Positions 3,292 to 27,928 of a stretch of DNA of 32,000 nucleotides are shown here, piece after piece (the stretch's first letter is position 1; every line of letters begins with the position of its first letter). The notes beneath the pieces are model-generated. The model was not told the origin of the DNA, made no database searches, and was given only the letters and a program-made list of their open reading frames with translations. The stretch comes from Nitrosopumilaceae archaeon (lineage in GTDB: Archaea; Thermoproteota; Nitrososphaeria; Nitrososphaerales; Nitrosopumilaceae): positions 21,226 through 53,225 of the forward strand of contig DASPGM010000014.1 in assembly GCA_035620615.1 (NCBI GenBank), given 5' to 3'. The position numbers and the translations under genes were made by a program.

Positions 3292-4389
3292 TTGTTGAAT
3301 AAAATAATTTTTCCTATGGTATTTTTACTAATTTTATTATTTAATCAAAATTATGCTCAAGCGGAAACTACGTGTAGTCAACAAAATTCAGGAATTCCTC
3401 CTTTTCAACTAAGGTCTGTTTTTTTCGTTGATTCAAACACTGGATGGGTAGTAGGAGGCGGTGGAACTGTACTCAAAACCACCGATGGTGGAACAACATG
3501 GATTCAACAAACATCTAATACCTCTCAAGAACTCAATTCTGTTTTTTTTGTTGATTCAAGTACTGGATGGGCAGTAGGTGATGGAGCTTTTGGCGTAAAT
3601 ATAATTAAAACAGTAAATGGTGGTACAACTTGGACTACCATAAACTCTGGCTTTCTTGGAACTCTTAATTCTGTTTTTTTTGTTGATTCAAACTCTGGAT
3701 GGGCAGTAGGTGGTGATGGAATACTACATACTACAAATGGTGGGAACACATGGAGTGCACAGTCAGCATTTCCAGGCTCATCTCTCGATTTTGTTGATTC
3801 AAATACTGGTTGGGCTGGAGGCGGTTCGATGGTAGCAAAAACAACAAATGGTGGTACGACATGGACTCCCCAAAGCACAGGCATAAGTATTTCAATCAAC
3901 TCTGTCGATTTTGTTGATTCAAATACTGGTTGGGTAGTGGGTAGTGCTCAAAGAATACTGAAAACAACGGATGGCGGTACAACATGGACTCTCCAAAACA
4001 TCGGTTTTTCTTTAGATCAACTGCGTTCTGTCGATTTTATTGATTCAAGTACTGGATGGGTAGTGGGTTATGATGCCTTAGCATCTAGTAACTTAATACT
4101 AAAGACCACTGATGGCGGTACAACATGGACTCCACAAACCTCTGGAACTACCAACTTTCTATGGTCTGTTGATTTTGTTAATTCAAGTACTGGTTGGACA
4201 GTAGGTGTAGGAGCATTAATACTCAAATGTACATCGTCGCTCCAAAATGGTCAAGTCATTGGTGGAAAAATAATTCCAATAGAAACAACTAGTTTAATCC
4301 TAGCAGGTGCTCAAATATTCACTTGGATGATTCCTGTTTTAGTATCTGGAATAGGAATTGGTTTGATAGTATTTAGAAAGAGAATCTAA
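3292..4389 (+). CDS. Secreted BNR/Ycf48-like beta-propeller repeat protein with C-terminal transmembrane anchor
   Basis: 365-aa ORF. N-terminal signal peptide (…LILLFNQNYAQA). About 7 repeats of SVxFVDSxTGWxVG…ILKTTDGGTTW (BNR-like SxDxGxTW-type motif). C-terminal hydrophobic helix followed by FRKRI. Start is TTG 3292 or ATG 3316. Confidence 0.8.
   Translation: MLNKIIFPMVFLLILLFNQNYAQAETTCSQQNSGIPPFQLRSVFFVDSNTGWVVGGGGTVLKTTDGGTTWIQQTSNTSQELNSVFFVDSSTGWAVGDGAFGVNIIKTVNGGTTWTTINSGFLGTLNSVFFVDSNSGWAVGGDGILHTTNGGNTWSAQSAFPGSSLDFVDSNTGWAGGGSMVAKTTNGGTTWTPQSTGISISINSVDFVDSNTGWVVGSAQRILKTTDGGTTWTLQNIGFSLDQLRSVDFIDSSTGWVVGYDALASSNLILKTTDGGTTWTPQTSGTTNFLWSVDFVNSSTGWTVGVGALILKCTSSLQNGQVIGGKIIPIETTSLILAGAQIFTWMIPVLVSGIGIGLIVFRKRI
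3409..4233 (+). repeat. Intragenic tandem repeats (~120-130 nt units) encoding the propeller blades
   Basis: Near-identical DNA stretches, e.g. gattttgttgattcaaatactggttggg at about 3787-3814 and 3907-3934. They also create the mirror ORF 3525..3899 on the opposite strand. Confidence 0.8.
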
Positions 4390-8182: not shown

Positions 8183-9929
8183 CAGATTTTGCCAAATTTC
8201 TTGGATAATCAGGATCAGTGTCTTTTACAATGGCTGAATAATATGCCAGAAGTTGAATTGGAATAATTTCTATCATAGGAAACATCGCTTCTCCTATACT
8301 TGGAATTTCTATCCAATGATCATAAATCTCACTTTTTTTATCTGAAATTCCAATAATCTTCGCACCTCTTGCTTTGATTTCACTTGCACTAGTTAAAGTG
8401 TCAGTATAAGTAGAATCATTTGGATTAATTATTAATACATAAACGTTTGAATCCATTAGTGCCAATGGCCCATGTTTTAGTTCTCCACCTGGAATTCCCT
8501 CAGCATGAATGTATGTTAACTCTTTTAATTTTAGAGCAGCTTCAGATGCGATTGGATAATGAATTCCTCTTCCTAAAACGTAAATGTCACTTACATTCTT
8601 CAGTTCATTTGCTATAGACTGAATTTTTGAGTGATTTGAAAGAATTTTTGAAATTGAATCAGATATCTCCTTGAAATCTAAATTCAGACACCCATTACAC
8701 AATTTTTCTGTAATTTTATAAATTATAGCAAGTTGCGAGGTAAAACTCTTAGTTGCTGCAACACCTATTTCAGGGCCACAATTCATTCCAAGAAAAAGTG
8801 AGGATTCTTGCACTAGTGATGAATTTTTATGATTGGCAATGGACAAAATTTTTGCATTAGATTTTTTGGCAATGCCTACTGCTTCAAGAACATCTGCGCT
8901 TTCACCACTTTGTGAAATTGCAATAAAAATTGAGTTAGGTTCTATAGAGTCTGGTAGGGTAGAAAGCTCACTGGAAATAATTGATTCTATTTTTATTTTA
9001 GCGAATTTTGCCATTAGATATTTTGCAACTAATGCAGCATTATAGCTAGTGCCACTACCTGTAATGTATACAGTTTTTGCATGTTTTATAAAATCAGAAG
9101 TTTGTTCTATTGCAGATTGAGTTTTATTTCCTGCATGCAGTATAGTTTCAGGTTGTTCAGATATTTCTTTTAATGTAAAGTGAGCATAATCTCCTTTGTA
9201 TGCATCAGCAAATTCTTTTGAAATTTTTGTAACTTGATGTTTTACAGGCTTTCCTTCAAAATCACAAATCTGTATTCCTGTAGTATCAATAAAAATTAAA
9301 TTTCCATTATCAACATATATCGCATCATCTGTTTGTTCAATAAATCCCAAAACATCACTTGATAAAAAATAATCATTTTTTCCAATTCCAATAATCATTG
9401 GTTCATGAAATCTAGCCGCGGCTAGCAAACCGTTATCAAACATTGCTACAAACGCGTAATGGCCTTTTAATTTTGAAACCGTACTAATGATTGCTTTTTT
9501 AACATCTAAAGTTAGATCATAATTTTGTTGTAAGAGGTTTGATATTACTTCAGTATCTGTTTCACTATTAAATGTAAATCCATTTTTTTGTAAATCTTCT
9601 TTTAACTCATTATAATTTTCAATAATTCCATTATGCACAATTGCAACTTTTCCTGAATTACTTGGGTGTGGATGTGCATTTATCTGGGTCACCTTTCCAT
9701 GAGTTGCCCATCTAGTATGACCAATTCCGATATTTCCAGAAAGTTTATCAAGATTTACAGAATTATTTACCTCACTAACTTTTCCAACTCCTTTTCTAAC
9801 TTCTATTTTATGGTCAGAATTAGTGGCTACTCCTACACTATCGTATCCTCGATATTCCATTCGTTTAAGACCCTTCACCAAAATAGGGGCAGCAGAGCCT
9901 TTTCCATAGTAACCTATTATTGAACACAT
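8169..9929 (-). CDS. glmS: Glutamine--fructose-6-phosphate aminotransferase (isomerising)
   Basis: 586-aa ORF starting MCSIIGY (N-terminal nucleophile Cys2), with a glutaminase domain and two SIS domains (GSGTSYNA, GRGIHYPIA). Its 3' end overlaps convergent cobT by 14 nt. Confidence 0.95.
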   Translation of the reverse strand: MCSIIGYYGKGSAAPILVKGLKRMEYRGYDSVGVATNSDHKIEVRKGVGKVSEVNNSVNLDKLSGNIGIGHTRWATHGKVTQINAHPHPSNSGKVAIVHNGIIENYNELKEDLQKNGFTFNSETDTEVISNLLQQNYDLTLDVKKAIISTVSKLKGHYAFVAMFDNGLLAAARFHEPMIIGIGKNDYFLSSDVLGFIEQTDDAIYVDNGNLIFIDTTGIQICDFEGKPVKHQVTKISKEFADAYKGDYAHFTLKEISEQPETILHAGNKTQSAIEQTSDFIKHAKTVYITGSGTSYNAALVAKYLMAKFAKIKIESIISSELSTLPDSIEPNSIFIAISQSGESADVLEAVGIAKKSNAKILSIANHKNSSLVQESSLFLGMNCGPEIGVAATKSFTSQLAIIYKITEKLCNGCLNLDFKEISDSISKILSNHSKIQSIANELKNVSDIYVLGRGIHYPIASEAALKLKELTYIHAEGIPGGELKHGPLALMDSNVYVLIINPNDSTYTDTLTSASEIKARGAKIIGISDKKSEIYDHWIEIPSIGEAMFPMIEIIPIQLLAYYSAIVKDTDPDYPRNLAKSVTVK

Positions 9930-9966
9930 AATTTCTACCTAGTAATTGAAATATTTACAGATAAGC

Positions 9967-10566
9967 TTAATCTTTTGCTTGAACAGCCGAAGTGCCATCA
10001 CTTGATTCTTCAGGAGTATCTATTTCTGATTCATCAGTAGTTGGCTCTTCAATTTTTGTTTTCCCGTGTTTTTCCAACAGTTCTCCTAATGAAGAACCTG
10101 GGGCTAAACGAATTTGATCTTCCTCATTCATTCCAACCGAATACGATGGTACGTTTACAATCCTATCTCCAATCATAATATGACCGTGTACTACAGCCTG
10201 CCTTGCTTGATAAGGAGTTCTAAAAGAAAATTTCTTTTGAACTACTGTTTGTAATCTGCGAGATAACAAATCTGTCACCTGAAGGTTTAACACATCATCC
10301 AGAGTTGAATTCGCTTCTACTAATCCAACTTTAGATAACGACTTCATCAATATTGGTTCTTTTTCATCTCTTATTTCTTGTCTAAGCGCAAGTAAAGAAC
10401 GAGCTTGATGTCTCAATCTAGAAAGTTCTGTATGTGCTTTCCATAATTCTCGTTTTGTTTTTAATCCAAAAGTTCCTAATGTCTTTAATTCTTCCATCTT
10501 AAGATCATAATTGAGAGGATTTCTTGGTTTCTTCCAAGATCTTCGCGGATTTTTTGGATCTCCCAT
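9967..10566 (-). CDS. rps4: 30S ribosomal protein uS4 (S4)
   Basis: 199-aa ORF MGDPKNPRRSWKKPRNP… with an S4 RNA-binding domain (RRLQTVV…HGHIMIGDRIVNVPSY) and an acidic C-terminal tail. Confidence 0.95.
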   Translation of the reverse strand: MGDPKNPRRSWKKPRNPLNYDLKMEELKTLGTFGLKTKRELWKAHTELSRLRHQARSLLALRQEIRDEKEPILMKSLSKVGLVEANSTLDDVLNLQVTDLLSRRLQTVVQKKFSFRTPYQARQAVVHGHIMIGDRIVNVPSYSVGMNEEDQIRLAPGSSLGELLEKHGKTKIEEPTTDESEIDTPEESSDGTSAVQAKD

Positions 10567-10575
10567 CTATTTCAC

Positions 10576-11253
10576 CTATTTTTTAGCTCCGCCCTTAGTC
10601 TCTTTTGCTTTTTCTTTCCCTTCAGCTGGAGCTGCAGCCTTTCCTGCAGCTGGTGCAGTACTTTTTCCTGCAGCTGGAGCTGCAGTCTTTCCTGCAGCTG
10701 GTGTAGTACCTTTTCCTGCAGCTGGAGCTGCACTCTCAGCTGGAGCTGCGCCTTCAGCAGCTACTTCTGCACCTGGAGCTCCAGGCGCACCAGCTGGTAA
10801 AACTTTTCCTCCTTTTTGAACACCGACGGCTCCTCCTTTTCGACCAGAAGTACGTGTACATTGTCCCCTAACTTTTAAGCCATACATGTGACGGTAACCT
10901 CTCCAACTATAGATCCCCTTTTCTCTTTCAATATCATTTCTAACTGTAAGGGCAATATCTGATGTAATCAAATGAGACGTCTGCCCTGTTTCAGAATCTT
11001 TTCGCCTATTTAGGAACCAAGATGGAAATTTAGCTGAATTTGGATCCTTAATTATTTGTTCAATTGATTGAACTTGAGATTCAGTAAGATTACCAATATT
11101 ACTATTAGAGTTAATTTTTAATGAATCTAAAATTGCATTTGCAAAGTTATAACCAATCCCTCGAATTTGTGTTAGACCAACTATAATTTTTTTAGATCCC
11201 GGAATATCATTTCCTACAATTCTCACAATATGCTGATATTCATTTGCTGTCAA
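10576..11253 (-). CDS. rps13: 30S ribosomal protein uS13 (S13) with 73-aa Ala/Pro/Gly/Lys-rich C-terminal extension
   Basis: 225-aa ORF with a TTG start. The S13 body ([12 protein letters not shown]…GLTQIRGIG…[16 protein letters not shown]) is followed by the tail [12 protein letters not shown]…(PAAGKxxx)x5…KETKGGAKK. Confidence 0.9.
10606..10725 (-). repeat. Five tandem 24-nt (8-codon) repeats encoding PAAGK-xxx within the uS13 tail
   Basis: Repeating ttcctgcagctgg(a/t)g… units. Locally GC-rich in an AT-rich genome. Responsible for the mirror ORF 10511..10819. Confidence 0.85.
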
Positions 11254-11351
11254 GTATGAAGATTCAAAATTACCAAGATAAAAACCATACTAAGAATTTT
11301 ATCAAGAAAAAACAATTCTTTTCAAAAATATATCACAATTTCAGTAAATGG

Positions 11352-11359
11352 TATAAATT
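11352..11359 (+). promoter_or_regulatory. TATA-like box (TATAAATT) for the AAA+/VWA/wHTH operon
   Basis: Centred 26 nt upstream of ATG 11381, consistent with a leaderless archaeal transcript. Confidence 0.4.
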
Positions 11360-11380
11360 GTAAGAGCTCTAAAGTAGTTT

Positions 11381-13009
11381 ATGTTAGACACCTCAAGCAT
11401 TGTTGGACAAAGCTATAATTCCTCTCCAAAATACACTGAAATCCAAGCAGGATTACCTGAAGATTTTAAAGATATCAAAACCTTAGGTGATCTTTTAGCT
11501 ATTAATTACAAATTAGTTAGCGTAAAACAGCAACTTAGAAGAAATTTAATTTCTCTAATTAACTTGGGTAAGCCCAAATATCCTGGAATAATTGGTTTTG
11601 AGGATGATGTAATTCCCGCATTAGATAGAGCAATTCTTTCTTGCCATGATATATTTTTGGTTGGACAAATTGGTCAAGCCAAAACCAAAATTGTTGAAAC
11701 TATTTCTAAGAACCTATTATCCCCAATTCCAGTAATTAAAAATAGTATTACAAACGACTGCCCAATGGATTTACCTGAAAATGATTTGATATCATTACTG
11801 AATGATAAAGAACCAAATAATCTAAGTCCTAAATTCTATGTTAGTCCTGAAAGTGCTGAGAGAATACGTGATGATAAACTAGACACAGAAATAGTATGGT
11901 TGGAGGGAAAAAATAGATACAAGTATGTACTTGCAACTCCCGATATCTCAGTAAAAGATTTTGTTGGTTATATAGATGCAATTAAAGTTGCAAAAAAAGG
12001 AATTGAAATTTACAAAATTGATTCTTATTCACCAGGTCAGCTTATGCAGGCAAAACATGGAATATTTTGTATTGATGAATTACCAGTACTTGATCCAAGA
12101 AAACAAGTATCTTTACTTTCTGTATTACAAGAAGGTAGATTTACTACAGGTTCATATCCTGTAATCTTTGAACCAAAAATTTCTCTCTTTGCAACTGCAA
12201 ATCCAATTGATTATACTCATTCAGGGAAGGTAATCGAACCATTATACGACCGATTGAAAAGCCATATTCATACACATTATCCAAAATCAATTGATAACGA
12301 AATGTTAATTATTCTTCAGGAGGCAAAAATCCCTCAAACTATAATTTTTTCTCCAATATTAAAAATTCTTTCTACAATTATTCAAAACGCAAGAAAAAGT
12401 TTTGAAATAAATCAAGAAAGAGGTGTGAGTGTAAGACTTGGAATTCATGGACTAGAGTTACTTGTGGGAGAATCAGAAAGAGCACGTGCACTCTCTCATA
12501 AAATTACTGCAGTCCCAAGATTATCTGATATGTATTGTCTTAATCAAGTTGCAAAATTTGAACTTATTGAACAAGACGACACCATTGAAAATCGAGAAAA
12601 ATTCTTCAATAAATTAATCGACGACTCCATTCATCAAATCAGCATAGAATATCTGAATGAAAAGGATGCGACCCTATTAGAAGGAATAAAACAAGAATTT
12701 CAAGGAAAAACATTCCAAGTCTCACAGAAAATGATATGGAAAAATGGTCAAACTTCATACGAAAATCAACTTGATAATTTTAAAAATCTCAAACAACTTG
12801 TAGAATTAAAAGCTGAAAAAGTACATTCTGAACAAAAATTACTAATAGAAAAAACGGTTCCTTACAGTATAGAATCTAGCTCGTTGATAATCAATGAAGC
12901 AGGTGAAAGCGAATTACGCTCGGTTTTAACTGAAATTATTCTTGAAGGACTTCGGGGAACTACCCCAAAAATTCTCGAGCGAAAAGAAGCAGGATATGTC
13001 TCGGCCTAA
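11381..13009 (+). CDS. ChlI/BchI-like (Mg-chelatase subunit I / MoxR-related) AAA+ ATPase with N- and C-terminal extensions
   Basis: 542-aa ORF. Deviant Walker A GQIGQAKT (res 95-102), Walker B IFCIDE (228-233), LLSVLQEGRFT, sensor-1-like ATANP, Arg-finger-like YDRL, lid-like GVSVRLGIHGLELL. The ordering parallels ChlI. There is a ~125-aa insert between Walker A and B and a ~170-aa helical C-terminal extension. Confidence 0.75.
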   Translation: MLDTSSIVGQSYNSSPKYTEIQAGLPEDFKDIKTLGDLLAINYKLVSVKQQLRRNLISLINLGKPKYPGIIGFEDDVIPALDRAILSCHDIFLVGQIGQAKTKIVETISKNLLSPIPVIKNSITNDCPMDLPENDLISLLNDKEPNNLSPKFYVSPESAERIRDDKLDTEIVWLEGKNRYKYVLATPDISVKDFVGYIDAIKVAKKGIEIYKIDSYSPGQLMQAKHGIFCIDELPVLDPRKQVSLLSVLQEGRFTTGSYPVIFEPKISLFATANPIDYTHSGKVIEPLYDRLKSHIHTHYPKSIDNEMLIILQEAKIPQTIIFSPILKILSTIIQNARKSFEINQERGVSVRLGIHGLELLVGESERARALSHKITAVPRLSDMYCLNQVAKFELIEQDDTIENREKFFNKLIDDSIHQISIEYLNEKDATLLEGIKQEFQGKTFQVSQKMIWKNGQTSYENQLDNFKNLKQLVELKAEKVHSEQKLLIEKTVPYSIESSSLIINEAGESELRSVLTEIILEGLRGTTPKILERKEAGYVSA

Positions 13010-14345
13010 TACTGGAAATTTTGTATACTATCTAAGTGATGGTAAGAAAAAAAATACCAAATTTGAAAACACCCTTTCTGATAAGAAGCTAGGCGAAATA
13101 TTACATACACTCTCAAAATATTCAATGAAAGAAAAAACACCAGAATTTGAAGAATTAGAATCTATATTACAAAATTCCTTACATCAAAATGAAAACCAGG
13201 ATAATGAGATTAAAATGGAAAATGACAAAAATATTGAAGATGGCGGGGCTTCTTTAACAAAACTGCTGAAGGAAAAGGGTTATCTTCGTGAGGGAAAAAA
13301 ATGGTTAACCCATAAAGGATTTTTTAAAATTGGTGGAAAAATTCTTCACGATGTAATGAAGGAACTTAATTCTTCCGATGTGGGTTTGCATGAGACTAAA
13401 TTTATTGGCGGTGGTAATATCTTAATGGATACCACAAAAAAATTTGAACCAGGTAATGATTTTAAATTCCTTAGTGTACCTCAAACGTTACTTAACACCA
13501 TTAAAAGAATTTCCAAAATTAACCATCAAATTAATTTTCCAGTAGAAATAATTCTTGACGATCTTGAAGAATTTGAAACCTTTGAAGATGTACGAGTAGA
13601 TATAGTATATTGTATTGATTTAAGCTCTACAATGAAATATTCAATAGGAAAAAATGACTCAAGTAGAATTGAAGCTGCCAAAAAAGCCCTTTGGGGACTC
13701 TATATACTAAATAAAAAATTCTATCCAAATGATACAATCTCAATTGTGGGATTTGGTTCTATGGCATCATTAATTGATCCTTATGACATTCCATTTCTAA
13801 AAACATTTGATGCAAATGATGATTTTTTACATTATACAAATTACCAGGCTGCGTTAAGATTGGCTAGAAAAATTTTACAGAAAAGTTCTGCGGAAAATAA
13901 GAGAATAGTAATGATCACAGATGGACAACCTAGTGCTTGTTTTATTGATAACATTCACCAAAAAAATGATATTATTTCTGAGAAACCATACTCAAATTTC
14001 TATACGCCTAGTAAAGATGTTATATCTAAAATAAAAAAAGAACGAGATTTGAAACTCGACATAAACGAAGGAAGCCTGGTTTACCTTTGTTATAGATACA
14101 AGAAAGTAGACTCAAAGATAAATGATAGAACGATTATGGAAGCTAAAAAATGTAAGAGAGAGGCAATTAACATTGATACTATTGTGGTAGGTGAGGAAGA
14201 AGAACTTTTGAAATATGCCCAAGAACTTGAACAAAAATTAAAAGGAAAAACCTATCATATCAATCAGGAGAATATGGAACAAGTTCTAGTTCATGATTAT
14301 CTTACAAAAACCAGAAAAGTTTTAAGTTCTAAACAGATTTGGTGA
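12996..14345 (+). CDS. von Willebrand factor A (VWA) domain protein, ChlD/CoxE-like partner of the upstream ATPase
   Basis: MIDAS-like D-L-S-S-T at 13617-13631 (VYCIDLSSTM) and ITDGQPSA downstream. I prefer ATG 12996 (MSRPNTGNF…, 14-nt overlap with the ATPase gene) over the track's TTG at 12942. Confidence 0.75.
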   Translation: MSRPNTGNFVYYLSDGKKKNTKFENTLSDKKLGEILHTLSKYSMKEKTPEFEELESILQNSLHQNENQDNEIKMENDKNIEDGGASLTKLLKEKGYLREGKKWLTHKGFFKIGGKILHDVMKELNSSDVGLHETKFIGGGNILMDTTKKFEPGNDFKFLSVPQTLLNTIKRISKINHQINFPVEIILDDLEEFETFEDVRVDIVYCIDLSSTMKYSIGKNDSSRIEAAKKALWGLYILNKKFYPNDTISIVGFGSMASLIDPYDIPFLKTFDANDDFLHYTNYQAALRLARKILQKSSAENKRIVMITDGQPSACFIDNIHQKNDIISEKPYSNFYTPSKDVISKIKKERDLKLDINEGSLVYLCYRYKKVDSKINDRTIMEAKKCKREAINIDTIVVGEEEELLKYAQELEQKLKGKTYHINQENMEQVLVHDYLTKTRKVLSSKQIW

Positions 14346-14349
14346 TTTA

Positions 14350-14661
14350 TTGGAACCTACCTACAACAAAGAAAAGATTTTAGAATCTATTTTTGATCCT
14401 GAAACATCTGAAATTTTAGCAGAATTAGAAAATGGTGGAAAAGAATTACAATATCTGACAGACAAATTAAAAATTTCTGAAGATGAAATTTACGCAAAAC
14501 TATCTTACTTAATTGAACACAATTTTGTAAAAAAAGAAAAAACCAATAGCAAAATTATTTTTACAGCGAATGCAGAAAAATTAGCAGAACAGGTTGAACA
14601 AGATAATAATTTTGATAATGTAGTTGATGGATTAGCTAAAATGGATAGTTATCTTAATTGA
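14350..14661 (+). CDS. Small winged-helix (ArsR/TrmB-like) putative DNA-binding protein
   Basis: 103-aa ORF with a TTG start, 4 nt after the VWA stop. ILESIFDPETSEILAELENGGKELQYLTDKLKISEDEIYAKLSYLIEHNFVKKEK has the spacing of a wHTH. Assignment is by pattern only. Confidence 0.5.
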   Translation: MEPTYNKEKILESIFDPETSEILAELENGGKELQYLTDKLKISEDEIYAKLSYLIEHNFVKKEKTNSKIIFTANAEKLAEQVEQDNNFDNVVDGLAKMDSYLN

Positions 14662-15163
14662 ATTTTTCTTTTCGTTTATTTCGTATTAAATTAACTACAA
14701 TTCCACCCATTCCAATTAATCCTACAAGTATAATATAGAAACCTATAATCCCTACAGAAAGGATATTGCTATCTGGCATGTATCCAATTCCAGCAACAAT
14801 TTTTATTTGTTCCAACCCAGAATTTTCAATAGTAACCCTGTAGGTACCTTTTGAGTTGATTTCAAATCGTTCTTCTGTTGTTTCTTGATCAATTGTCTTT
14901 GACAAAATTTGACTTTCACTTGGTTCAAACACAGTTACATGAATCATATTTTCCTCATATTTTGATAAGAGAATCCCATACACTCCAGTTTCACTAAAAG
15001 CAGGATCAAGTTCTGCTGTTACATCCATTGAAGAACCAGATTCCAAATTTTCTTCTGTTATGGTCAAATTTTGAGTTGCTAATTGTGTACCATAAAATGA
15101 TAGTACCATCCCTATTCCAATCAGAAATCCAACAATTAATAAAAAAATTAATGGTTTTTCCAT
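14654..15163 (-). CDS. Hypothetical membrane protein (N-terminal TM, ~110-aa extracytoplasmic beta-rich domain, C-terminal TM)
   Basis: 169-aa ORF with hydrophobic helices at both ends and a KRKEKFN tail. Convergent 8-nt overlap with the wHTH gene. Confidence 0.6.
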   Translation of the reverse strand: MEKPLIFLLIVGFLIGIGMVLSFYGTQLATQNLTITEENLESGSSMDVTAELDPAFSETGVYGILLSKYEENMIHVTVFEPSESQILSKTIDQETTEERFEINSKGTYRVTIENSGLEQIKIVAGIGYMPDSNILSVGIIGFYIILVGLIGMGGIVVNLIRNKRKEKFN

Positions 15164-17541: not shown

Positions 17542-18894
17542 TTAAACTGGTTCAGGATGAATTGTTATTATTGCATTCTTAAACCTACTACGAATTTTCC
17601 TTTCAATCTGAGATGTTAAATCATGAACAGTCTCGATGGATAAATTTCTATCAAAAGAGCAATCAAAATCAATTTTTAGTACATCTTGATACTTTAAAGT
17701 AACAACTCGTCCAATTTTTTTTATTTGTGTAAATTCTTCAAGTAATTGGACTAGCATTTCCTTGGTTATTTTACCTTCAATTTTGAGCTTTTCAGGAATG
17801 GCCACAAAAGGTTCTAAGTGTATTGTGACATGATGAATTTTAGGAAGATTTTTCTGAATTTTTCCTTCTATAATTTCAGAAATTTTATGGGCATCTTCTA
17901 AATTCTTTTCCCTATCTACCATTACATGAAAACTTACAAAAATTTTACCTTCAGATGAATAGGATGAAATGTTATGAACATCTTTTACACCATCAATGGA
18001 CATTGCAATATCATTAATCTTTAATTCTTGAGGGACATTTTGCCAGCTTGGCTCAATTCGTATAGATGTCATTGAGTTTGATATTTGATTTTTTATGTTT
18101 TTTTCAGCTTCAGCGGAAATTTCATGAGCCTTATCAAAGCTAACATCTCCACGTAGTGTAATAGTGACATCGCAAAAAATCGTATCTCCTGATTTTCTCA
18201 TTAGAATTGGTCCAACTCCAATAACTCCTTCTGTGTTTTGTGAAATTTCTCTCACTTTGGCAACAAGTCCGGGTGAAATAATGTCAGTAAGATCCATTGC
18301 GGTACGATAAATTAATTTTAAGCTCAATACTACAAGCAAAATTCCTAAAACCAATGCTGCAATAAAGTCTCCTTGGAAAAATCCAACTGTTACAAGCAAA
18401 ATTCCACCAATTGCTACGATTGTCGAGCCAAGGTCCATAATTGCATGATAAAAATCAGCTTTTAGTGTTGTACCGCCAATTTTTTTTATAGATTTTTGTA
18501 AAAGAATAATTCTAAAAATATCAACTCCAATTGTGTATATTCCAGCTGTTATAGCTAAAACTCCTGGTAATATCTGAGGTTCTGGACTTGATAAACGAAT
18601 TATTGCCTCATAAATGAAAAAGGAGGCAATTAATAAAATTGCTATTCCTCCAAATAATCCTCCAAGTGATTCAATTTTTCCATGTCCATAAGTATGCTCT
18701 GCATCAGGAGGTTTTATAGCCCATTTTGCAGCTAGGAGAAGAACAATTGTTACAACACTATCTAAAAGAGCATGAACGCTATCGGTAATTAGACCAAGAC
18801 TATTAAAAATTAATCCAAAAGCCAGCTCTACTGCAAACGCTGACAAGATTGCAAAAAGAGAAATCGTAAGAACCTGAGTTTTTTGCAGAACCAT
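17542..18894 (-). CDS. Cation diffusion facilitator (CDF) family metal exporter with three tandem C-terminal cytoplasmic domains
   Basis: 450-aa ORF with six TM helices. HxxxD in TM2 (DSVHALLD) and TM5 (HAIMD). Three successive ~75-aa segments each end in an I/H-x-EP motif (SIRIEP, TIHLEP, TIHPEP). Confidence 0.9.
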   Translation of the reverse strand: MVLQKTQVLTISLFAILSAFAVELAFGLIFNSLGLITDSVHALLDSVVTIVLLLAAKWAIKPPDAEHTYGHGKIESLGGLFGGIAILLIASFFIYEAIIRLSSPEPQILPGVLAITAGIYTIGVDIFRIILLQKSIKKIGGTTLKADFYHAIMDLGSTIVAIGGILLVTVGFFQGDFIAALVLGILLVVLSLKLIYRTAMDLTDIISPGLVAKVREISQNTEGVIGVGPILMRKSGDTIFCDVTITLRGDVSFDKAHEISAEAEKNIKNQISNSMTSIRIEPSWQNVPQELKINDIAMSIDGVKDVHNISSYSSEGKIFVSFHVMVDREKNLEDAHKISEIIEGKIQKNLPKIHHVTIHLEPFVAIPEKLKIEGKITKEMLVQLLEEFTQIKKIGRVVTLKYQDVLKIDFDCSFDRNLSIETVHDLTSQIERKIRSRFKNAIITIHPEPV

Positions 18895-18956: not shown

Positions 18957-21900
18957 ATGCGACAATGTTATTTGCCTGAAAGCCATTTCTTTCTATTACG
19001 AGTTAATTTGAATAAAATCGGTATCATAATTATAGGTTTAATGATATTTATCCCAATTTTTTCTGGGTTTCAAGCAGATGCAGCTCATAATCCGAATCTC
19101 TATGTTTCAGCTGAAAATTCAGATTTTGAAAACCATTTTGCAGGCTCTATGGTAATTGAAGTAGTTGTAACTGATCCAAATTATAGTGATGTGGGAAACG
19201 CAATGGGGGAACCAGATGTTACTCTAAATGGTAAGGATCTAAGGATGGTTCAAGCAACAGATGGAAAATGGTATGCATATTTTGCAAGTATAAAAGCAGC
19301 AAAAAATGCAGATCAATTAGTTTTAAATGCTGGTCCAGGGGCTATTGGAAAAAGTTTAGACTTTGGCGTTTTTTGCAGTAGTACGACTTCATCATCAGTT
19401 CTTGGAGTAAGTTTTTCTGACACTGAAGGAGTTTCAGTTCCAGGTCGTATTGGTCTATCAGATTTTACAAATGGTAATTCAGCCTTTACATCATGCACTT
19501 CATCTCCAACAGGTGGTAATGAAAATAATGTAGTTCGTAATCCTAGATCGATTAACACAAATCCTTCTGTATCTCCAGGACAAATTGGCATTGATATTGA
19601 TGCATGGCCAATCATTCAATTATTTTCTTTTAGTAATAGTGTAGAAATAAAATTTAATCGAGCAGGTGGAGTAGAAAAAACTGTTCTTTCATATGATGAT
19701 ATTCCAAATATTTCATTATCAACGGATAGAAATGGCTATCCAAATAACGCCGAAGTTTTCTTAACTATTAATGATATCCAATTAAACCAAGATCCTACAG
19801 ATGAAGATTCATGGACATTTAACATAAATTCTCCAGAAACAGCTTTTTATCAAGCATTCACCGAATCTGGTTCAGACTCTGGAAACAATAGTCCAGGTTT
19901 AATCAATTTAGTTCCACATCTCTCAAGTCTAGGATTTGAAGATAATGGAAAACTAGCTATTAATCTTGGAACTATTGCAAGGTTGAAAACTAATGACCAA
20001 CAACCAAGCCTTTCAGTCTCGGATACTATGAATACCTTTACTCAAATCGTCACAGTTGTAGAATCGGAACCCAATTCGGGAAAATTCGAAAATTTTGATT
20101 CCAGTAACGAGTCAACTATTGGAATATTAGGAAATGCCCCTAGAGGTCAGTCTGCTATTATACAATATGATGACAAGTCAACTTCAATTCTAGCAGGCCC
20201 TTCTACTGCATCTATATCAATGACTCCAAAAGGTGGTCAATTTAATGCAGGTCAGCAGGCTCCAGTAACAGTAGTAGATACTGATCAAAATTTTAATTCA
20301 GGTTCAAGAGACATCCTTAATGTTTTTCGAAGTACAGCAATTATTCCTACTTTACAGCTAGGCGAGCCTGCAACTCTTGAAAAAACATCCGGTCTGAAAT
20401 TCTATACTGTTTCTACTGACACTCTATCTGGGGGATTTTCAGTGGATTTTTCGGTTCCAGATAAAAATTCTGATAGACTAATCATTAACACTGCTCCAGT
20501 AGGTACAAGCGCCTTTGAAGTAATTTCTATGAACATGGGAATTACTGCTGGAACATTACAATCATTATTCATTAATAATATCTTACCAAATAATATTGGA
20601 ACAAATTGGTTAAACTTTGATCTAAAATCAATTGAACAACAATTAGGGGTTTCTTCATTTTCTGATACGAGTATATCATTACATTTTGGTGGATTACCTG
20701 GGACTGCAGTACAAATTCTAGATCCAGGGGATATCTCATCAGGAAGTGGTTTAATACAACTAGATGACGTAGATATAGTTGCAATAAATTCTGTTCCAAG
20801 TTCATCTTCTGTTTTTTTGGTGGTTAATTTTGATTCTTCTGATAATACTGTTTCTACAGGAATGATATCTAATGAAAAAGATAGTCAACCAATTGTAGTT
20901 GATTTTTTTTCGTTTGGACAAAAAAACAATCAGGATATTAACAATGCAATTTATCGATTTGAATTAGAAGAGACCGCAAATGATTCTGGAATTTTTGTTG
21001 GATCAATTGAATATTCAGTTACAAATCAGGTAAATATTTCAGATCCATCTTTAATCAAATCACTTAGAACTATCGATGATAGAATAAAATTTCTAGTTAA
21101 TAATAGATTGATAGATGAGAAGGGAATTAACATCGCATATTCTGATATTTCTGGAGTTGGCGTCATAATTAGTACATCATCAAAAACTGACATCAACACA
21201 AATTCGGGAACAGTTTCTTTTACATCTAATACTTATCGTTTTGGACAACCAGTTTTTTTTGTTTTAAAAGATCCTGATCTTAATCTAAAACATGATACCA
21301 TTGAATCATACCAAGTTGTAAATAATCCTAATTCACCTAATGTAGATACCGTTGGAACATCAAATGGCGAAATTCTAGTTGAAATCTTAATCAAAGATTT
21401 TCGGTATAAACGTTGTACAATAAATGGACTAGAACATGGAGGTCTTGCATCAACCGGATTTATTCTTGTAGAAACTGCACCCAATTCGGGAATATTTGAA
21501 GGAAGTTTTAAAATGCCCTCACAAATCTGTGATAAAACCGGCACTAAACTAATTTCTACAGCAGGTGGAAGCCTTGATGCCAAATATTATGACTTTAGAG
21601 ATTCTTCAGGAAAACAAAATATTTTTAGCTCAACTAGTCTCGGTTCCTCATCTATGGGAGAAAGCCCAACAAGCTTAAACTTTAAAAAATTTATAATTCC
21701 AGAGTATAGGAAAACTACTGATGTAATTCTCAGTGGCAAGGTAAATAATTACAATCAAGGCACAACCATCGACATTACTCTCTTTGGACCAGACCTGTCT
21801 TCAGAAAAATTTACTGCATTTGCAACAAAGAATGGAGAATTTAGAGGAGTTTTTACCTTGCATGACTATTCACTGCCTGGTAATTACAAATTAAGTGTGA

Positions 21901-22214
21901 GTTATCAAGGTATACATATTGGAGATGAAGAATTTCAGGTCTCAAAATATTTGGTTCCTGATTGGATAAAAAATAATGCAAGGTGGTGGTCTTCAGATCA
22001 GATCTCAGACTCTGAATTTATCCGGGGAATTCAACATCTAATAGATAAAAAAATAATTGTCATACAAAATTCTGTCAAATCTCAAAACGCTGTAGGGGAT
22101 GTTCCAATATGGATTAAAAATACTGCAAAATGGTGGTCTCAAGATATTGTTTCTGACGATGAGTTTGTTGCAGCTATAGAATTTTTTGTAAAAAATGGCA
22201 TAATAAGGCTATAA
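18957..22214 (+). CDS. Large secreted surface protein (unknown function) with C-terminal tandem Trp-rich 35-aa repeats
   Basis: 1085-aa ORF. The true start is probably TTG 19008 (MNKIGIIIIGLMIFIPIFSGFQADA/AHNP, a good signal peptide), because the TATA-like tctaatttaag at ~18939-18950 is too close to ATG 18957. Ser/Thr/Asn-rich, beta-rich composition. Confidence 0.8.
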   Translation: MRQCYLPESHFFLLRVNLNKIGIIIIGLMIFIPIFSGFQADAAHNPNLYVSAENSDFENHFAGSMVIEVVVTDPNYSDVGNAMGEPDVTLNGKDLRMVQATDGKWYAYFASIKAAKNADQLVLNAGPGAIGKSLDFGVFCSSTTSSSVLGVSFSDTEGVSVPGRIGLSDFTNGNSAFTSCTSSPTGGNENNVVRNPRSINTNPSVSPGQIGIDIDAWPIIQLFSFSNSVEIKFNRAGGVEKTVLSYDDIPNISLSTDRNGYPNNAEVFLTINDIQLNQDPTDEDSWTFNINSPETAFYQAFTESGSDSGNNSPGLINLVPHLSSLGFEDNGKLAINLGTIARLKTNDQQPSLSVSDTMNTFTQIVTVVESEPNSGKFENFDSSNESTIGILGNAPRGQSAIIQYDDKSTSILAGPSTASISMTPKGGQFNAGQQAPVTVVDTDQNFNSGSRDILNVFRSTAIIPTLQLGEPATLEKTSGLKFYTVSTDTLSGGFSVDFSVPDKNSDRLIINTAPVGTSAFEVISMNMGITAGTLQSLFINNILPNNIGTNWLNFDLKSIEQQLGVSSFSDTSISLHFGGLPGTAVQILDPGDISSGSGLIQLDDVDIVAINSVPSSSSVFLVVNFDSSDNTVSTGMISNEKDSQPIVVDFFSFGQKNNQDINNAIYRFELEETANDSGIFVGSIEYSVTNQVNISDPSLIKSLRTIDDRIKFLVNNRLIDEKGINIAYSDISGVGVIISTSSKTDINTNSGTVSFTSNTYRFGQPVFFVLKDPDLNLKHDTIESYQVVNNPNSPNVDTVGTSNGEILVEILIKDFRYKRCTINGLEHGGLASTGFILVETAPNSGIFEGSFKMPSQICDKTGTKLISTAGGSLDAKYYDFRDSSGKQNIFSSTSLGSSSMGESPTSLNFKKFIIPEYRKTTDVILSGKVNNYNQGTTIDITLFGPDLSSEKFTAFATKNGEFRGVFTLHDYSLPGNYKLSVSYQGIHIGDEEFQVSKYLVPDWIKNNARWWSSDQISDSEFIRGIQHLIDKKIIVIQNSVKSQNAVGDVPIWIKNTAKWWSQDIVSDDEFVAAIEFFVKNGIIRL

Positions 22215-23402: not shown

Positions 23403-23729
23403 TTGATGCATATAGAATATGAAGAATTTGAATCAATTGAAGATATTTTCATGTACATGTCTTCGGTAGCACCCCCGATGAAAAATACTCTACCCATAAA
23501 TTCTTACAAAGGTTATGTTTTCTCTTTTATTCCATTAAGTCATTCTAACGGAGATGTTTATCTTTTTATTTACACAAAAGGAAAACTTGAAGGGAGAATT
23601 TTAGAATTTGATACCAATTCACATTCTTATAAAAAAGTAGAATCAATTGAAAGAGCAGATAAAAATTATTTTATTGTTCTTCATCCAAAAAGAAATACAA
23701 TTGCAGATGTAGCTCTAGAAAAATTATAA
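23403..23729 (+). CDS. Hypothetical protein (108 aa)
   Basis: ORF only (TTG 23403 / ATG 23406), with no recognisable motif. Convergent 6-nt overlap with the radical SAM gene. Confidence 0.4.
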   Translation: MMHIEYEEFESIEDIFMYMSSVAPPMKNTLPINSYKGYVFSFIPLSHSNGDVYLFIYTKGKLEGRILEFDTNSHSYKKVESIERADKNYFIVLHPKRNTIADVALEKL

Positions 23730-25301
23730 TTTTTTAGTTTCAATCTTTGGCGCACTAACTGATCTACTCCGTGCATATTTTTCTACAATCTCATCAGGCA
23801 TTCTTCCATTGAATAGATCTTTACATAAACCACGTAAGTATCTCATAATTGCCCATGTTCCTGCTTTAATTATTCCATACATGAAAACTTTCATTGCTGG
23901 TCCATAAGTTTTATTCCTTAAAATAATTGGAATAATATCATTAATTACACGTAAATTATTTTCCCAGCACTTCCAAAATAACGTGAATTGGGCCTCATTT
24001 AGATTACCGAAATGCATTGAATTTTTCTCACTAAAATCTTGATAAAGTAAAGGTGCAACAAGACCTCTAAAGTTTGTAGCCCTAAAATCCTTCATCATAT
24101 CGATAGTGTATTGAACTTCATCAGGGGTTTCATCTGGCCATCCGATAATTATTGTCGCAGCTGGGAACCAATGATTCTCATTAAGAATTCTTGCTCCTTC
24201 TCTAACTACACTTCCCCATTCATCAGTTGAAAATGGCTTGGTTTTTACTCCTAGGTGTTTTTTAACCATACGTGGGGCTACTGTTTCAATTCCAAGATTT
24301 GTAGAAAGCCACCTTCCATTTTTTTGCATTTCATTTATTTCGGAAATATTTTGAAGAAGCTTCGGATCTGCTGCTACTGCTGAGAAGGTCATATGGGTAG
24401 TACCAATAAAATTGGGACCTAAACTTTTCAAACCTTTCCATAATTCAGTAATAGCGTCTCTGTTTGGTACAAATTCTCTGTTATCACATCCATAAAGTAA
24501 CATTTCATCAGAATGTAACCAAATTGAATCAAAACCATAATCTAGATTTATTTTTGCTTCATGCTTTAATCTCTCCAGAGGTAAATCTTTTTTTGATCTT
24601 TTATTTACATCACAAAAATCACAACCCCTTCCGCATCCTCGCATAGCCTCAATCAGTGAATTCACAGTGGGACCTTCAATAATTGGAATATTTTGAATAT
24701 TTTTCACAAAACAATGCATTAATTCAGGAGCATCTCCTTTCTCCAAATCATTAAATAAATCCAAGGCTAATTCATCTGCTTCACCAACAACTACAGTGTC
24801 TATTCCATGAATTTTCATTCTATCGGTTTTTGCAAGCTCCCATGCGCCATTTCCTCCTACAACTACCTTGAAATCATATTTTTTCTTTAATTGAATTATA
24901 TTTGCACACATTTTTTTGAACTTCATAGCTACATAAGATAATTTTTCTGGAGACATTGTTGTTGTAACAGGTGCCATACCAAGGGGATCCATTACATTAA
25001 TTCCTACCACTTTTGTTTCTGGACCTATGGATTTTTCAAGGTAATCTGGATTTGCTACAAAAACTTCATCTTTTTTGTATCCTTGTAGTAAAGCACTTTC
25101 TACTCGTCGTAAACCTACTTGAGCAACTTTTGCTTCCCCAGTTACAGGATCTGTCTCCACTGCTGGACAAAAAACCTTGTCAAAAACCCATTCAGGAAGT
25201 ACTTCATATGGTCCACACGCAATAAATCCATAAAGAAAATTTCCTCTATAGTTTGTCATCAAACTACGGTCTGCTGTTAGAACTATTCGCTTGCCTGACA
25301 C
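23724..25301 (-). CDS. Radical SAM enzyme with N-terminal B12-binding-like (Rossmann) domain
   Basis: 525-aa ORF with a GTG start. CX3CX2C motif MRGCGRGCDFCDV (24612-24635). The upstream KVVVGGNGAWELA…VVVGEADE segment resembles the cobalamin-binding-domain fold of class B radical SAM enzymes. Confidence 0.85.
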   Translation of the reverse strand: MSGKRIVLTADRSLMTNYRGNFLYGFIACGPYEVLPEWVFDKVFCPAVETDPVTGEAKVAQVGLRRVESALLQGYKKDEVFVANPDYLEKSIGPETKVVGINVMDPLGMAPVTTTMSPEKLSYVAMKFKKMCANIIQLKKKYDFKVVVGGNGAWELAKTDRMKIHGIDTVVVGEADELALDLFNDLEKGDAPELMHCFVKNIQNIPIIEGPTVNSLIEAMRGCGRGCDFCDVNKRSKKDLPLERLKHEAKINLDYGFDSIWLHSDEMLLYGCDNREFVPNRDAITELWKGLKSLGPNFIGTTHMTFSAVAADPKLLQNISEINEMQKNGRWLSTNLGIETVAPRMVKKHLGVKTKPFSTDEWGSVVREGARILNENHWFPAATIIIGWPDETPDEVQYTIDMMKDFRATNFRGLVAPLLYQDFSEKNSMHFGNLNEAQFTLFWKCWENNLRVINDIIPIILRNKTYGPAMKVFMYGIIKAGTWAIMRYLRGLCKDLFNGRMPDEIVEKYARSRSVSAPKIETKKL

Positions 25302-25392: not shown

Positions 25393-26115
25393 ATGAAAGA
25401 CATTAGTGAGCCTCGACATTTAGAACCTCATATTAATGAGTCAAGCTCAATGCGTGATTTTATTTTTGGTTTTGGTGATGGAATAAATACTTCATTAGGA
25501 ATTGCTGCAGGAGTTGGTGGGGCTTCTGTTTCATCAGATCTAATAATTCTTGCAGCCCTAGTAGCTATGTTTACAGGGGCAAAGGCCATGGCAGTTCAAA
25601 ATTATTTAGCTGTTAAATCTCAACGAGAATTATTATCTTCAGAAATTAATCGAGAAAACTGGGAAATAGAAAATAAACCAGAAGATGAAAGAAAAGAGAT
25701 TGAGGATATCTACAAAGCTAAGGGTTTTACAGGAAATGATCTTAAAATGATTGTAGATAAAATCACTTCTGATAAAAAAGTCTGGTTAGACACAATGCTT
25801 AGAGAGGAATTAAATTTGAATTTAGAAATTCTTGGACATCCAATAAAAAGTGCACTACGAATGTTTGGAGCATTTTTAATTGGAGGCATACTTCCAATAA
25901 TTCCATTTTTCTTTAGTTCCGGATTTACCCCACTTTTTATTGCAATTGGAATGAGTCTTGCTGCCTCCTTCATCGTTGGTGCGGTTAAATCAAGAATGGC
26001 AAATACAAGTTTTCTTAAAGGAGGAATAGAAATGGCAGGTTTAGGAACCGGCATAGCATTAATTGGATATGGAATTGGTAGTGAATTATCTAGTCTTGGA
26101 ATAATTAATGTTTAG
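25393..26115 (+). CDS. VIT1/CCC1-family iron/manganese transporter
   Basis: 240-aa ORF. FGFGDGINTSLGIAAGVGGA, an acidic cytoplasmic helical insert (EDERKEIEDIY) and C-terminal TM helices are typical of the VIT family. Confidence 0.85.
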   Translation: MKDISEPRHLEPHINESSSMRDFIFGFGDGINTSLGIAAGVGGASVSSDLIILAALVAMFTGAKAMAVQNYLAVKSQRELLSSEINRENWEIENKPEDERKEIEDIYKAKGFTGNDLKMIVDKITSDKKVWLDTMLREELNLNLEILGHPIKSALRMFGAFLIGGILPIIPFFFSSGFTPLFIAIGMSLAASFIVGAVKSRMANTSFLKGGIEMAGLGTGIALIGYGIGSELSSLGIINV

Positions 26116-26887: not shown

Positions 26888-26923
26888 TGTGAATTTAACG
26901 ATTTATTTCAGTTAAAAATCTAA

Positions 26924-27838: not shown

Positions 27839-27928
27839 GTCATGCGATTTTAATTCTCATTAATTAAATCTAGTGAATTTTAAATTCTATTCAAGAGAAT
27901 TTATATTCATTTTATTGATCTAAAAAAT

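Follow-up and report, generated by a model that had tools for sequence, protein, structure and literature searches.

A 32,000-nucleotide (nt) stretch of DNA from a Nitrosopumilaceae archaeon (contig DASPGM010000014.1; referred to as the window and numbered from its first letter) carries at positions 11381–14661 a trio of genes encoding an AAA+ ATPase (gene 1), a von Willebrand factor A (VWA) protein with a metal-ion-dependent adhesion site (MIDAS; gene 2) and a small winged helix-turn-helix (wHTH) protein (gene 3). Judged by sequence, genes 1 and 2 appear to be the ammonia-oxidising-archaeal version of the Rv0958/Rv0959-type module, named after the Mycobacterium tuberculosis genes for a ‘possible magnesium chelatase’ and a VWA protein, where the link to the mycobacterial genes is made via Pfam family names, adjacency, annotation and size. 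We assign a probability of about 0.75 to the reading that the pair is a self-contained AAA+ ring with a MIDAS adaptor that remodels a client, and that gene 3 is an accessory confined to Nitrosopumilales. The data show sequence homology, the integrity of the motifs, the AAA+ core fold, a pairing kept across lineages and the absence of a conserved client neighbour, whereas the hexamer, the docking mode, the remodelling of a client and the role of gene 3 are inferred.

Family and pairing of genes 1 and 2

Among 1.84 billion cluster representatives, searched exhaustively with HMMER, gene 1 has 1739 relatives at E≤1e-3, of which 79 reach E≤1e-30. Orthologues with 60–98% identity fall into more than 100 clusters and occupy 80 related GTDB species loci of Nitrosopumilaceae; these loci, 85 bacterial loci and a set of annotated neighbourhoods that includes L167–L170 underlie the counts given below. 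The counterparts in Nitrososphaeraceae are ~51% identical to gene 1, and the bacterial relatives, mostly ~450–510 amino acids (aa) long, are 31–40% identical over nearly the full length. Matches to bacterial representatives (E 1e-45 to 1e-57, 35–40% identity) establish full-length homology that includes the N- and C-terminal domains, and gene 1 has the traits of the family, i.e., a length of ~450–550 aa, the P-loop GxxGQ[A/G]K[T/S] and the sensor-1 block ANP[ED]DYT. Bacterial members come from Bacteroidota, Ignavibacteriales, Calditrichota, Chloroflexota, Acidobacteriota, Deltaproteobacteria, Planctomycetota and Actinobacteria. A profile made from the bacterial relatives retrieves thousands of bacterial proteins annotated as ‘magnesium chelatase’, and an actinobacterial protein of that name, from Micromonospora, is a relative of gene 1 at 9e-49.

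The pairing is conserved as well. All 68 Nitrosopumilaceae loci with enough sequence have the VWA gene, and all 68 have the wHTH gene; AAA+/VWA pairs are also present in Nitrososphaeraceae (L167) and in L168 and L169. Conservation of the trio is far above chance, and the trio is genuine. For bacteria, a tblastn count placed a homologous VWA gene directly 3′ and on the same strand in 51 of the 62 loci (from 85) with enough downstream sequence. Annotation of three bacterial neighbourhoods showed that the gene 3′ of the AAA+ gene encodes a VWA protein with PF27098 (Rv0959_3rd), and one of these proteins also has PF27532 (Mb0984_helical). Gene 2 aligns with bacterial partners in BLASTP at 2e-33 and 1e-20 over ~345–360 aa, the region upstream of the VWA domain included, and PF27098 is listed for many ammonia-oxidising-archaeal orthologues (52–77% identical to gene 2) and for the partner in L169; for P0392, a protein of a Nitrosopumilaceae metagenome-assembled genome that is 100% identical to gene 2, and its closest relatives, only VWA_2 is listed. 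This alignment, together with PF27098 on the archaeal orthologues, argues for assignment of the pair to the Rv0958/Rv0959 type, in which the Mycobacterium marinum Rv0958 orthologue, at 1,392 bp, has a size typical of the family (PMC11237697).

The description of the trio as an orphan, undescribed system in the first-pass annotation was thus overstated: the pair belongs to a large bacterial and archaeal two-gene family with a partner already catalogued as Rv0959_3rd and Mb0984_helical. This family is very large and spans many bacterial phyla and both major ammonia-oxidising-archaeal families examined, with Rv0958/Rv0959 placed in it by annotation and adjacency, and its members are routinely mis-annotated as ‘magnesium chelatase’ or ‘sigma-54 regulator’, an annotation that the present analysis sharpens. 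In the literature searched, Rv0958/Rv0959, MSMEG_5512 and COG4867 were found as screen hits or annotation mentions only, with no function found. These mentions comprise co-purification of MSMEG_5512 with RNA polymerase in affinity purification–mass spectrometry, without DNA association (PMC7092591); an interaction of the M. smegmatis Rv0958 orthologue with ClpC1 (PMC10433963); a transposon hit 5′ of the Rv0958 orthologue in M. marinum (PMC11237697); a host-dependent fitness locus (PMC10468300); and a mention as a chelatase, by annotation (PMC10774309). Literature on Nitrosopumilus with chelatase or VWA proteins yielded nothing relevant.

Motifs, folds and layout of the trio

The features of the trio and its promoter region are as follows.

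11353–11359, plus strand: candidate archaeal TATA box TATAAAT, 22–28 nt 5′ of the gene 1 ATG
11381–13009, plus strand: gene 1, 542-aa AAA+ ATPase of the ChlI/BchI–MoxR–LonB branch, N-terminal segment specific to its family (open reading frame, ORF)
11663–11686, plus strand: Walker A/P-loop of gene 1, G95-Q-I-G-Q-A-K-T102 (alignments)
12065–12079, plus strand: Walker B strand, F229-C-I-D232-E233 (E233, L234 and P235 invariant in 50 sequences)
12200–12202, plus strand: sensor-1 Asn274 in an A-N-P motif (A273, N274 and P275 invariant)
12434–12436, plus strand: putative arginine finger R352 in a G-V-S-V-R motif (G348, S350 and R352 invariant)
12996–14345, plus strand: gene 2, 449-aa VWA/MIDAS protein, ATG start (ORF and orthologue N-termini)
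13617–13631, plus strand: MIDAS D208-L-S210-S-T212 (invariant in 31 orthologues)
13836–13838, plus strand: MIDAS T281 (alignment)
13920–13922, plus strand: MIDAS D309 (alignment)
13929–14105, plus strand: VWA insertion after the TDG strand, residues ~312–370, candidate pore-entering ‘finger’ (alignment)
14350–14661, plus strand: gene 3, 103-aa winged-helix protein, TTG start (ORF)
14626–14658, plus strand: C-terminal tail of gene 3, D93-G-L-A-K-M-D99-S-Y-L-N103 (DGLxxxDxxLN at least 90% conserved, 70 loci)

ORFs and motifs agree with the three-gene anatomy noted at first pass, i.e., a ChlI-like AAA+ protein, a VWA/MIDAS protein and a small winged helix, and with its tight packing. Genes 1 and 2 overlap by 14 nt, and 4 nt separate the stop of gene 2 from the start of gene 3. 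The ORF of gene 2 opens upstream at TTG 12942, with ATG 12996 preferred as the start because the orthologue N-termini (NFVY[FY]L motif) and an independent 449-aa gene call agree. Elements like TATAAAT are also found 5′ of the gene 1 counterparts in related loci, and the position of this box relative to the ATG suggests that the transcript of genes 1–3 is leaderless or near-leaderless.

In Pfam, gene 1 matches AAA_5 at 2e-8 and, weakly, Mg_chelatase, MCM, Sigma54_activat and AAA_3; it lies far under every curated NCBIfam cut-off. A 50-sequence alignment of archaeal and bacterial proteins shows K101/T102, D232/E233, N274 and R352 to be invariant, with invariant columns from residue 55 to residue 524. 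With its catalytic AAA+ residues invariant, gene 1 is expected to be an active ATPase; the role of R352 as arginine finger is putative and assigned from its place in the ChlI-type order of motifs. The P-loop had been singled out as deviant, and an Ala does precede the Lys, but this is no peculiarity of gene 1, since GxxGQ[A/G]K[T/S] runs through the alignments of archaeal and bacterial family members alike. Both terminal extensions, and most of the insertion between Walker A and B, are likewise present in the bacterial relatives, and only residues 3–30, 132–153 and 484–508 are specific to the archaeal proteins.

Searches of the Protein Data Bank (PDB) with single protein sequences gave nothing useful; only family profiles reached ChlI (8osf, 1.5e-10) and archaeal LonB (9e-10), and also BchI. 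The AlphaFold2 (AF2) model of gene 1 has a predicted local distance difference test score (pLDDT) of 85 and a predicted template modelling score (pTM) of 0.83, and its core is matched best in Foldseek by NorQ, BchI, the LonB ATPase, CbbQ and ChlI, with RavA matched too. The helical C-terminal domain of ~165 aa (about residues 376–542), used as a separate profile, gave no PDB match and no meaningful Pfam match; the segment in the window has no Pfam match, and scattered weak ones occur in a few family members.

Gene 2 begins with a helical region, continues with a segment homologous to the bacterial Rv0959_3rd and closes with a VWA domain (Pfam VWA_2, 3e-9) that ends in a near-invariant Trp. D208, S210, T281 and D309 are invariant relative to the bacterial partners. 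The MIDAS had been called near-canonical at first pass; its residues are intact, but the third position of the motif is Thr in the archaeal protein and conforms to the canonical DxSxS in the bacterial relatives. The insertion after the TDG strand is ~30 aa longer in gene 2 than in the bacterial relatives. The AF2 model, made from an alignment of archaeal sequences only, is poor (pLDDT 50), and its core has weak Foldseek matches to the VWA folds of Rpn10, TFIIH p44/p34 and the MIDAS of MDN1 and Rea1, which indicates a generic VWA fold only.

Gene 3 is found in Nitrosopumilales only, in 68 of 68 loci with room for it and in L169, and is present neither in the Nitrososphaeraceae locus L167 or L168 nor in any bacterial locus. 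The protein has weak HTH matches (ArsR/SmtB, 6.6e-5; HTH_9, TrmB, Lrs14 and Csa3, ~1e-3 to 1e-4) and is acidic, with an isoelectric point (pI) of 4.5; its putative recognition helix, placed by eye, begins with acidic residues (S-E-D-E-I-Y). An operator search revealed no inverted repeat in the promoter region of the trio, where the only conserved elements between rpS13 and gene 1 are two TATA-like boxes, seen in a noisy alignment with automatically picked start codons. One of them lies 5′ of rpS13, which together with rpS4 is transcribed divergently from the trio:

11273–11295: conserved element GATAAAAACCATACT in the divergent intergenic region, which read on the minus strand is TTTTTATC, a TATA-like box ~25–40 nt 5′ of the rpS13 start

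The pI, the acidic start of the recognition helix and the promoter without an inverted repeat leave the proposal that the wHTH protein regulates the trio unsupported. For the same reasons gene 3 is more likely, at low confidence, a protein-binding adaptor or accessory, or a client-like factor, than a classical (auto)repressor, and its conserved tail might, speculatively, be a docking peptide or a ligand of the MIDAS. Gene 3 was also considered as a split-off part of the longer bacterial VWA partners, and phmmer found no similarity.

A membrane-protein gene converges on the trio:

14654–15163, minus strand: 169-aa membrane protein, convergent, with its 3′ end overlapping gene 3 by 8 nt (ORF)

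This gene is present in 66 of the 80 loci and in L169 and is co-conserved with the trio in Nitrosopumilales; two loci (L033 and L075) have lost it and retain gene 3. Neither gene 3 nor the membrane protein has bacterial counterparts, and both are missing from Nitrososphaeraceae. Hydrophobic segments lie at the N- and C-terminal ends of the membrane protein, for which Pfam and NCBIfam scans gave no significant family match.

Proposed mechanism, rival readings and genomic context

For the pair we infer a mechanism in which gene 1, its ATP site functional, would assemble into a ChlI/MoxR-type hexameric ring, and gene 2 would dock on this ring via its VWA domain, perhaps by means of the post-TDG insertion and the C-terminal Trp. 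The insertion is, by analogy, a candidate finger that may enter the ring pore, and together with the near-invariant Trp it makes NorD-like docking plausible. The MIDAS would hold an acidic residue of the client protein, a grip implied for the adaptor by the intact site, and the adaptor, pulled or twisted by ATP hydrolysis, would in turn remodel the client. The outcome would be cofactor insertion, or assembly or disassembly of a complex. NorQ/NorD, CbbQ/CbbO, RavA/ViaA and Rea1 work by such adaptor–client remodelling. The fallback offered at first pass, a chelatase-like motor with an unknown substrate, stands. Features worth testing are the family P-loop, the post-TDG insertion and the terminal Trp of gene 2, and the conserved tail of gene 3, and identification of the client would matter equally for mycobacterial physiology and for nitrifier biology.

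Several observations weigh against a ring-and-adaptor machine. Gene 1 is under the cut-off of every named family (AAA_3 at 21.7 versus 27 bits, TIGR02030 and TIGR02031 far under), and its N- and C-terminal domains have no counterpart in MoxR or ChlI. The model of gene 2 is of low confidence (pLDDT 50), so that the finger and the C-terminal docking are drawn by analogy only. No recognisable VWA gene lies directly 3′ of the AAA+ gene in 11 of the 62 bacterial loci, nor does one adjoin the AAA+ gene in L170, the closest of the non-archaeal relatives examined. Furthermore, no demonstrated activity or client was found in the literature searched for any family member.

Neighbours of the bacterial pairs bear on an unlikely alternative, a protein-quality-control or stress module akin to the Lon and PrkA AAA+ proteins, in which the ring would unfold or hand over damaged proteins chosen by the VWA adaptor. 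The family profile matches the LonB ATPase nearly as well as ChlI, in concurrence with Foldseek, weak PrkA-AAA matches recur in relatives, and ClpC1 interacts with the Rv0958 orthologue of M. smegmatis (PMC10433963), although this orthologue may be a mere ClpC1 substrate. A gene for a LonN-domain protein stands directly beside the pair in 12 of the 85 bacterial loci, in two arrangements, and a gene for an MBL-fold hydrolase recurs in 3 loci; the remaining neighbours reflect lineage synteny, and no other neighbour conserved across lineages was found in the bacterial and archaeal loci. However, the ten LonN loci compared represent a single bacterial clade, in which the AAA+ proteins of the sub-groups are 61–71% identical, the module of the window lacks a protease domain, a LonN gene is neither part of it nor close by, and its VWA protein is not of the DUF444/YeaH type. 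The stand-alone LonN protein (Lon N-terminal substrate-binding domain, ~210 aa) is encoded directly 5′ or 3′ of the pair in L082, L083, L143, L151, L153, L155, L157–L160, L163 and L165, loci that are GC-rich (0.56–0.66) and of which L082 is from Vicinamibacterales.

Little credence is given to a Rea1/Midasin-like machine, for which the ancient pair would have recruited gene 3 within Nitrosopumilales, and which would use the tail of gene 3 as the acidic ligand of the MIDAS or as a peptide docking on the ring, and would extract or install a factor on a core assembly. Candidate targets under this reading are the small ribosomal subunit, RNA polymerase or, via the membrane protein, a membrane copper enzyme. 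The first two are named because rpS13 is divergent from the trio in two ammonia-oxidising-archaeal families and because the mycobacterial homologue co-purified with RNA polymerase, but evidence for a role at the ribosome does not extend beyond this synteny with rpS13.

The first-pass annotation favoured a maturation or metal-insertion module for the multicopper oxidase (MCO) MCO1, or for another copper enzyme of ammonia oxidisers, with the wHTH protein as its regulator. In the window, an MCO gene lies ~650 nt 3′ of the trio and is followed by a ZIP gene, and several characterised AAA+/VWA pairs insert metals, e.g., NorQD (PMC13036017). In Nitrosopumilaceae, however, synteny extends more than 10 kb to both sides (YjeF, MBL, DBI_PRT-family phosphoribosyltransferase, glmS, rpS4, rpS13, trio, membrane protein), and adjacency alone therefore carries little weight. 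Informative for linkage to the MCO gene are 55 Nitrosopumilaceae loci whose sequence continues for 5.2 kb or more beyond the AAA+ start. In 29 of these, of the Nitrosopumilus-, Nitrosotenuis- and Nitrosarchaeum-like types, the MCO gene comes next, in most cases with the ZIP gene. The other 26, all of the Nitrosotalea type (including Candidatus (Ca.) Nitrosotalea bavarica and Ca. Nitrosotalea sp. FS), have the trio without a nearby MCO, ZIP or CDF gene; here the membrane-protein gene, missing in two, is followed directly by a homologue of the 1085-aa ORF of the window.

More distant loci point the same way. L086 (79% identical) has another gene in the place of the MCO gene, L167 keeps rpS13 and the AAA+/VWA pair with neither wHTH nor MCO gene, and L168 has the AAA+/VWA pair alone, without MCO. 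Ca. Nitrosotalea devanaterra is reported to have no MCO1 (PMC5817080, Table 1), and Nitrosotalea loci retain the trio. Bacteria other than ammonia oxidisers carry the family in abundance; an MCO or other metal gene lies beside the pair in none of the three bacterial neighbourhoods that were annotated, nor does any such gene recur as a neighbour cluster among the 85 bacterial loci. The favourable case is L169 (52% identical), where the order AAA–VWA–wHTH–TM–MCO–ZIP (TM, the transmembrane protein) survives despite an inverted upstream block. Conserved linkage to metal genes across genomes is thus largely lacking, and the copper-enzyme proposal, now improbable, does not hold as drawn from the MCO–ZIP neighbourhood. 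The present analysis removes a tempting but unsupported tie to archaeal copper enzymes.

Still less probable is that the two proteins are the I and D subunits of a true class I magnesium, cobalt or nickel chelatase with its CobN/ChlH subunit elsewhere in the genome. Best sequence and profile matches are to ChlI/BchI and ChlD, the public annotation reads ‘magnesium chelatase subunit I’, and the window also holds LarB/C/E, VIT1, CDF and ZIP genes, which bears out the earlier remark on a neighbourhood rich in metal genes; its metal and cofactor genes (identified by Pfam) are scattered, however. Yet the cut-offs for BchI-ChlI, BchD-ChlD and the cobaltochelatase subunit are 467–780 bits, against scores of ~15–50. 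D subunits of the ChlD and CobT type are defined by an N-terminal AAA+ module, which gene 2 does not have, and ChlI is without the N- and C-terminal domains of the family. As stated at first pass for the window, no CobN/ChlH-like gene is present among its ORFs scanned with Pfam, with the first two ORFs (294–2168) outside the scan; the counterparts of these two in the related locus L086 encode ribosomal protein S2 and enolase. Nor is such a gene present among the genes called in seven annotated neighbourhoods from beyond the family of the window (three bacterial, L167–L169 and L170).

A transcription regulator, i.e., an enhancer-binding-protein-like ATPase acting with the wHTH protein, is scarcely credible: weak Sigma54_activat matches, the name ‘sigma 54-interacting transcriptional regulator’ given to some relatives by NCBI and the divergence from rpS13 in two ammonia-oxidising-archaeal families speak for it, but archaea are not known to have sigma-54, gene 1 has neither a GAFTGA loop nor a DNA-binding domain among its Pfam and NCBIfam matches, gene 3 is acidic and the promoter without an inverted repeat, and the neighbourhood of rpS13 is disrupted in L169 and does not exist in L168. 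Co-purification of MSMEG_5512 with RNA polymerase would fit a regulator, but the same study found no DNA association (PMC7092591).

Other genes of the window and of related loci are listed below. A gene set resembling that for the nickel-pincer (NPN) cofactor occupies 26105–31112, with no obvious client enzyme, and is adjoined by a dehydrogenase gene.

2457–2543: tRNA-Leu(GAG), the sole RNA gene in the window by Rfam and ARAGORN
3292–4389: Ycf48-like BNR/beta-propeller protein (PSII_BNR, 2e-33)
17542–18894: CDF efflux protein with a duplicated ZT_dimer domain
23724–25301: radical-SAM protein, 525 aa
25393–26115: VIT1 Fe/Mn transporter
26105–26887, minus strand: LarB, AIR-carboxylase-like
26924–27838, minus strand: lactate/malate dehydrogenase, adjoining the NPN set
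27929–29161: LarC nickel-insertion protein (Pfam Ni_insertion, 1.5e-106)
29158–29958: PP-loop ATPase like LarE
29955–31112: class-V aminotransferase/cysteine-desulfurase-like protein

The 1085-aa ORF (18957–22214) has no Pfam or PADLOC match and is conserved in 50 of the 80 related loci. Ribosomal protein S13 (10576–11253, minus strand; 225 aa) ends in an Ala/Pro/Gly/Lys-rich repeat tail of AAPAAGK-like units, which accounts for a local GC content of 0.41 and for a spurious 102-aa ORF on the opposite strand; the protein has 154–158 aa in L167 and L169, and 240 aa in L086. In the complete genome of Ca. Nitrosotenuis chungbukensis MY2 (L039, NZ_CP130341.1, ~9604–11300), the VWA and wHTH genes seem frameshifted and could be pseudogenes or reflect assembly indel errors. 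In L167, directly after the pair, 11193–13556 encodes a 240-aa MoxR-like AAA+ protein (AAA_3/AAA_5) and then a 530-aa protein without a Pfam match, which may form a second remodelling pair.

Comparison with known systems

Three kinds of system were compared with negative results. For PrkA/YeaG with YeaH and SpoVR, the window has no PrkA C-terminal domain, DUF444 or SpoVR, and faint AAA_PrkA matches occur in relatives only. Of sigma-54 enhancer-binding proteins, neither GAFTGA nor HTH_8 is found, and the Sigma54_activat match covers residues 218–293 only, i.e., Walker B to sensor-1. A PADLOC defence scan gave generic AAA and HTH similarities only (1e-3 to 1e-4), and none for the VWA protein.

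In Rea1/Midasin, the MIDAS engages the centre of the AAA+ ring and binds an acidic residue of the client, and the MIDAS of MDN1 and Rea1 is among the weak fold matches of gene 2, whereas Rea1 itself is one giant polypeptide with six AAA+ modules. CbbQ/CbbO, RavA/ViaA and CoxD/CoxE share with the trio the principle of an AAA+ ring with a VWA adaptor that acts on a specific client, and CbbQ and RavA are among the fold matches of gene 1. In contrast to these systems, the window has no CbbQ_C, no VWA_CoxE and no Rubisco, carbon monoxide dehydrogenase or LdcI/Frd context. At E≤1, no VWA_CoxE or other family-specific VWA model matches gene 2, and the generic VWA_2 is its only match. With respect to MoxR, AAA_3 (21.7 bits) and bpMoxR (11.7 bits) both fall below their cut-offs of 27 bits and CbbQ_C is absent, but the fold likeness to NorQ and CbbQ is real.

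ChlI/BchI with ChlD/BchD is the closest family by profile (8osf, 1.5e-10) and agrees with the pair in the order of motifs and in having a VWA/MIDAS partner. Gene 2, however, lacks the AAA+ half of ChlD, with no AAA+ match in Pfam, the C-terminal domain of gene 1 is distinct, and a CobN-like gene was not found in the scanned ORFs of the window or in the annotated related loci. Scores are also far apart: the cut-offs are 499.6 bits for TIGR02031, which reaches 26.8, and 467 bits for TIGR02030, which has no match to gene 1 at E≤1 and scores 15–52 bits in relatives.

In structure, the gene 1 core is closest to NorQ (Foldseek 7e-8, TM-score 0.71–0.74 normalised by the target), and both have a separate VWA partner that contains a MIDAS, carries an insertion within its VWA domain and is conserved at its C-terminus. 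NorQ/NorD inserts non-haem iron into cNOR. A VWA finger reaches into the pore of the ring, NorD binds with its very C-terminus to a loop that follows sensor-1, and ATP-driven rotation remodels a linker and thereby allows metal insertion into the client (PMC13036017). NorQ, with ~255 residues in the solved chains, differs from gene 1 in having neither of its terminal domains; the window has no nor genes, and AAA_3 is under its cut-off.

Compared with Rv0958/Rv0959-type pairs, the archaeal AAA+ protein has three short extra segments, and in the VWA protein of archaea the N-terminal region is shorter, the post-TDG insertion is longer, the MIDAS motif reads DxSxT rather than DxSxS, and the C-terminal Trp is present. 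Another difference is the wHTH gene and the convergent membrane-protein gene, which accompany the pair in Nitrosopumilales only. Shared by both are the two-gene order, AAA+ and then VWA, and a homology of the partner proteins that reaches beyond the VWA domain.

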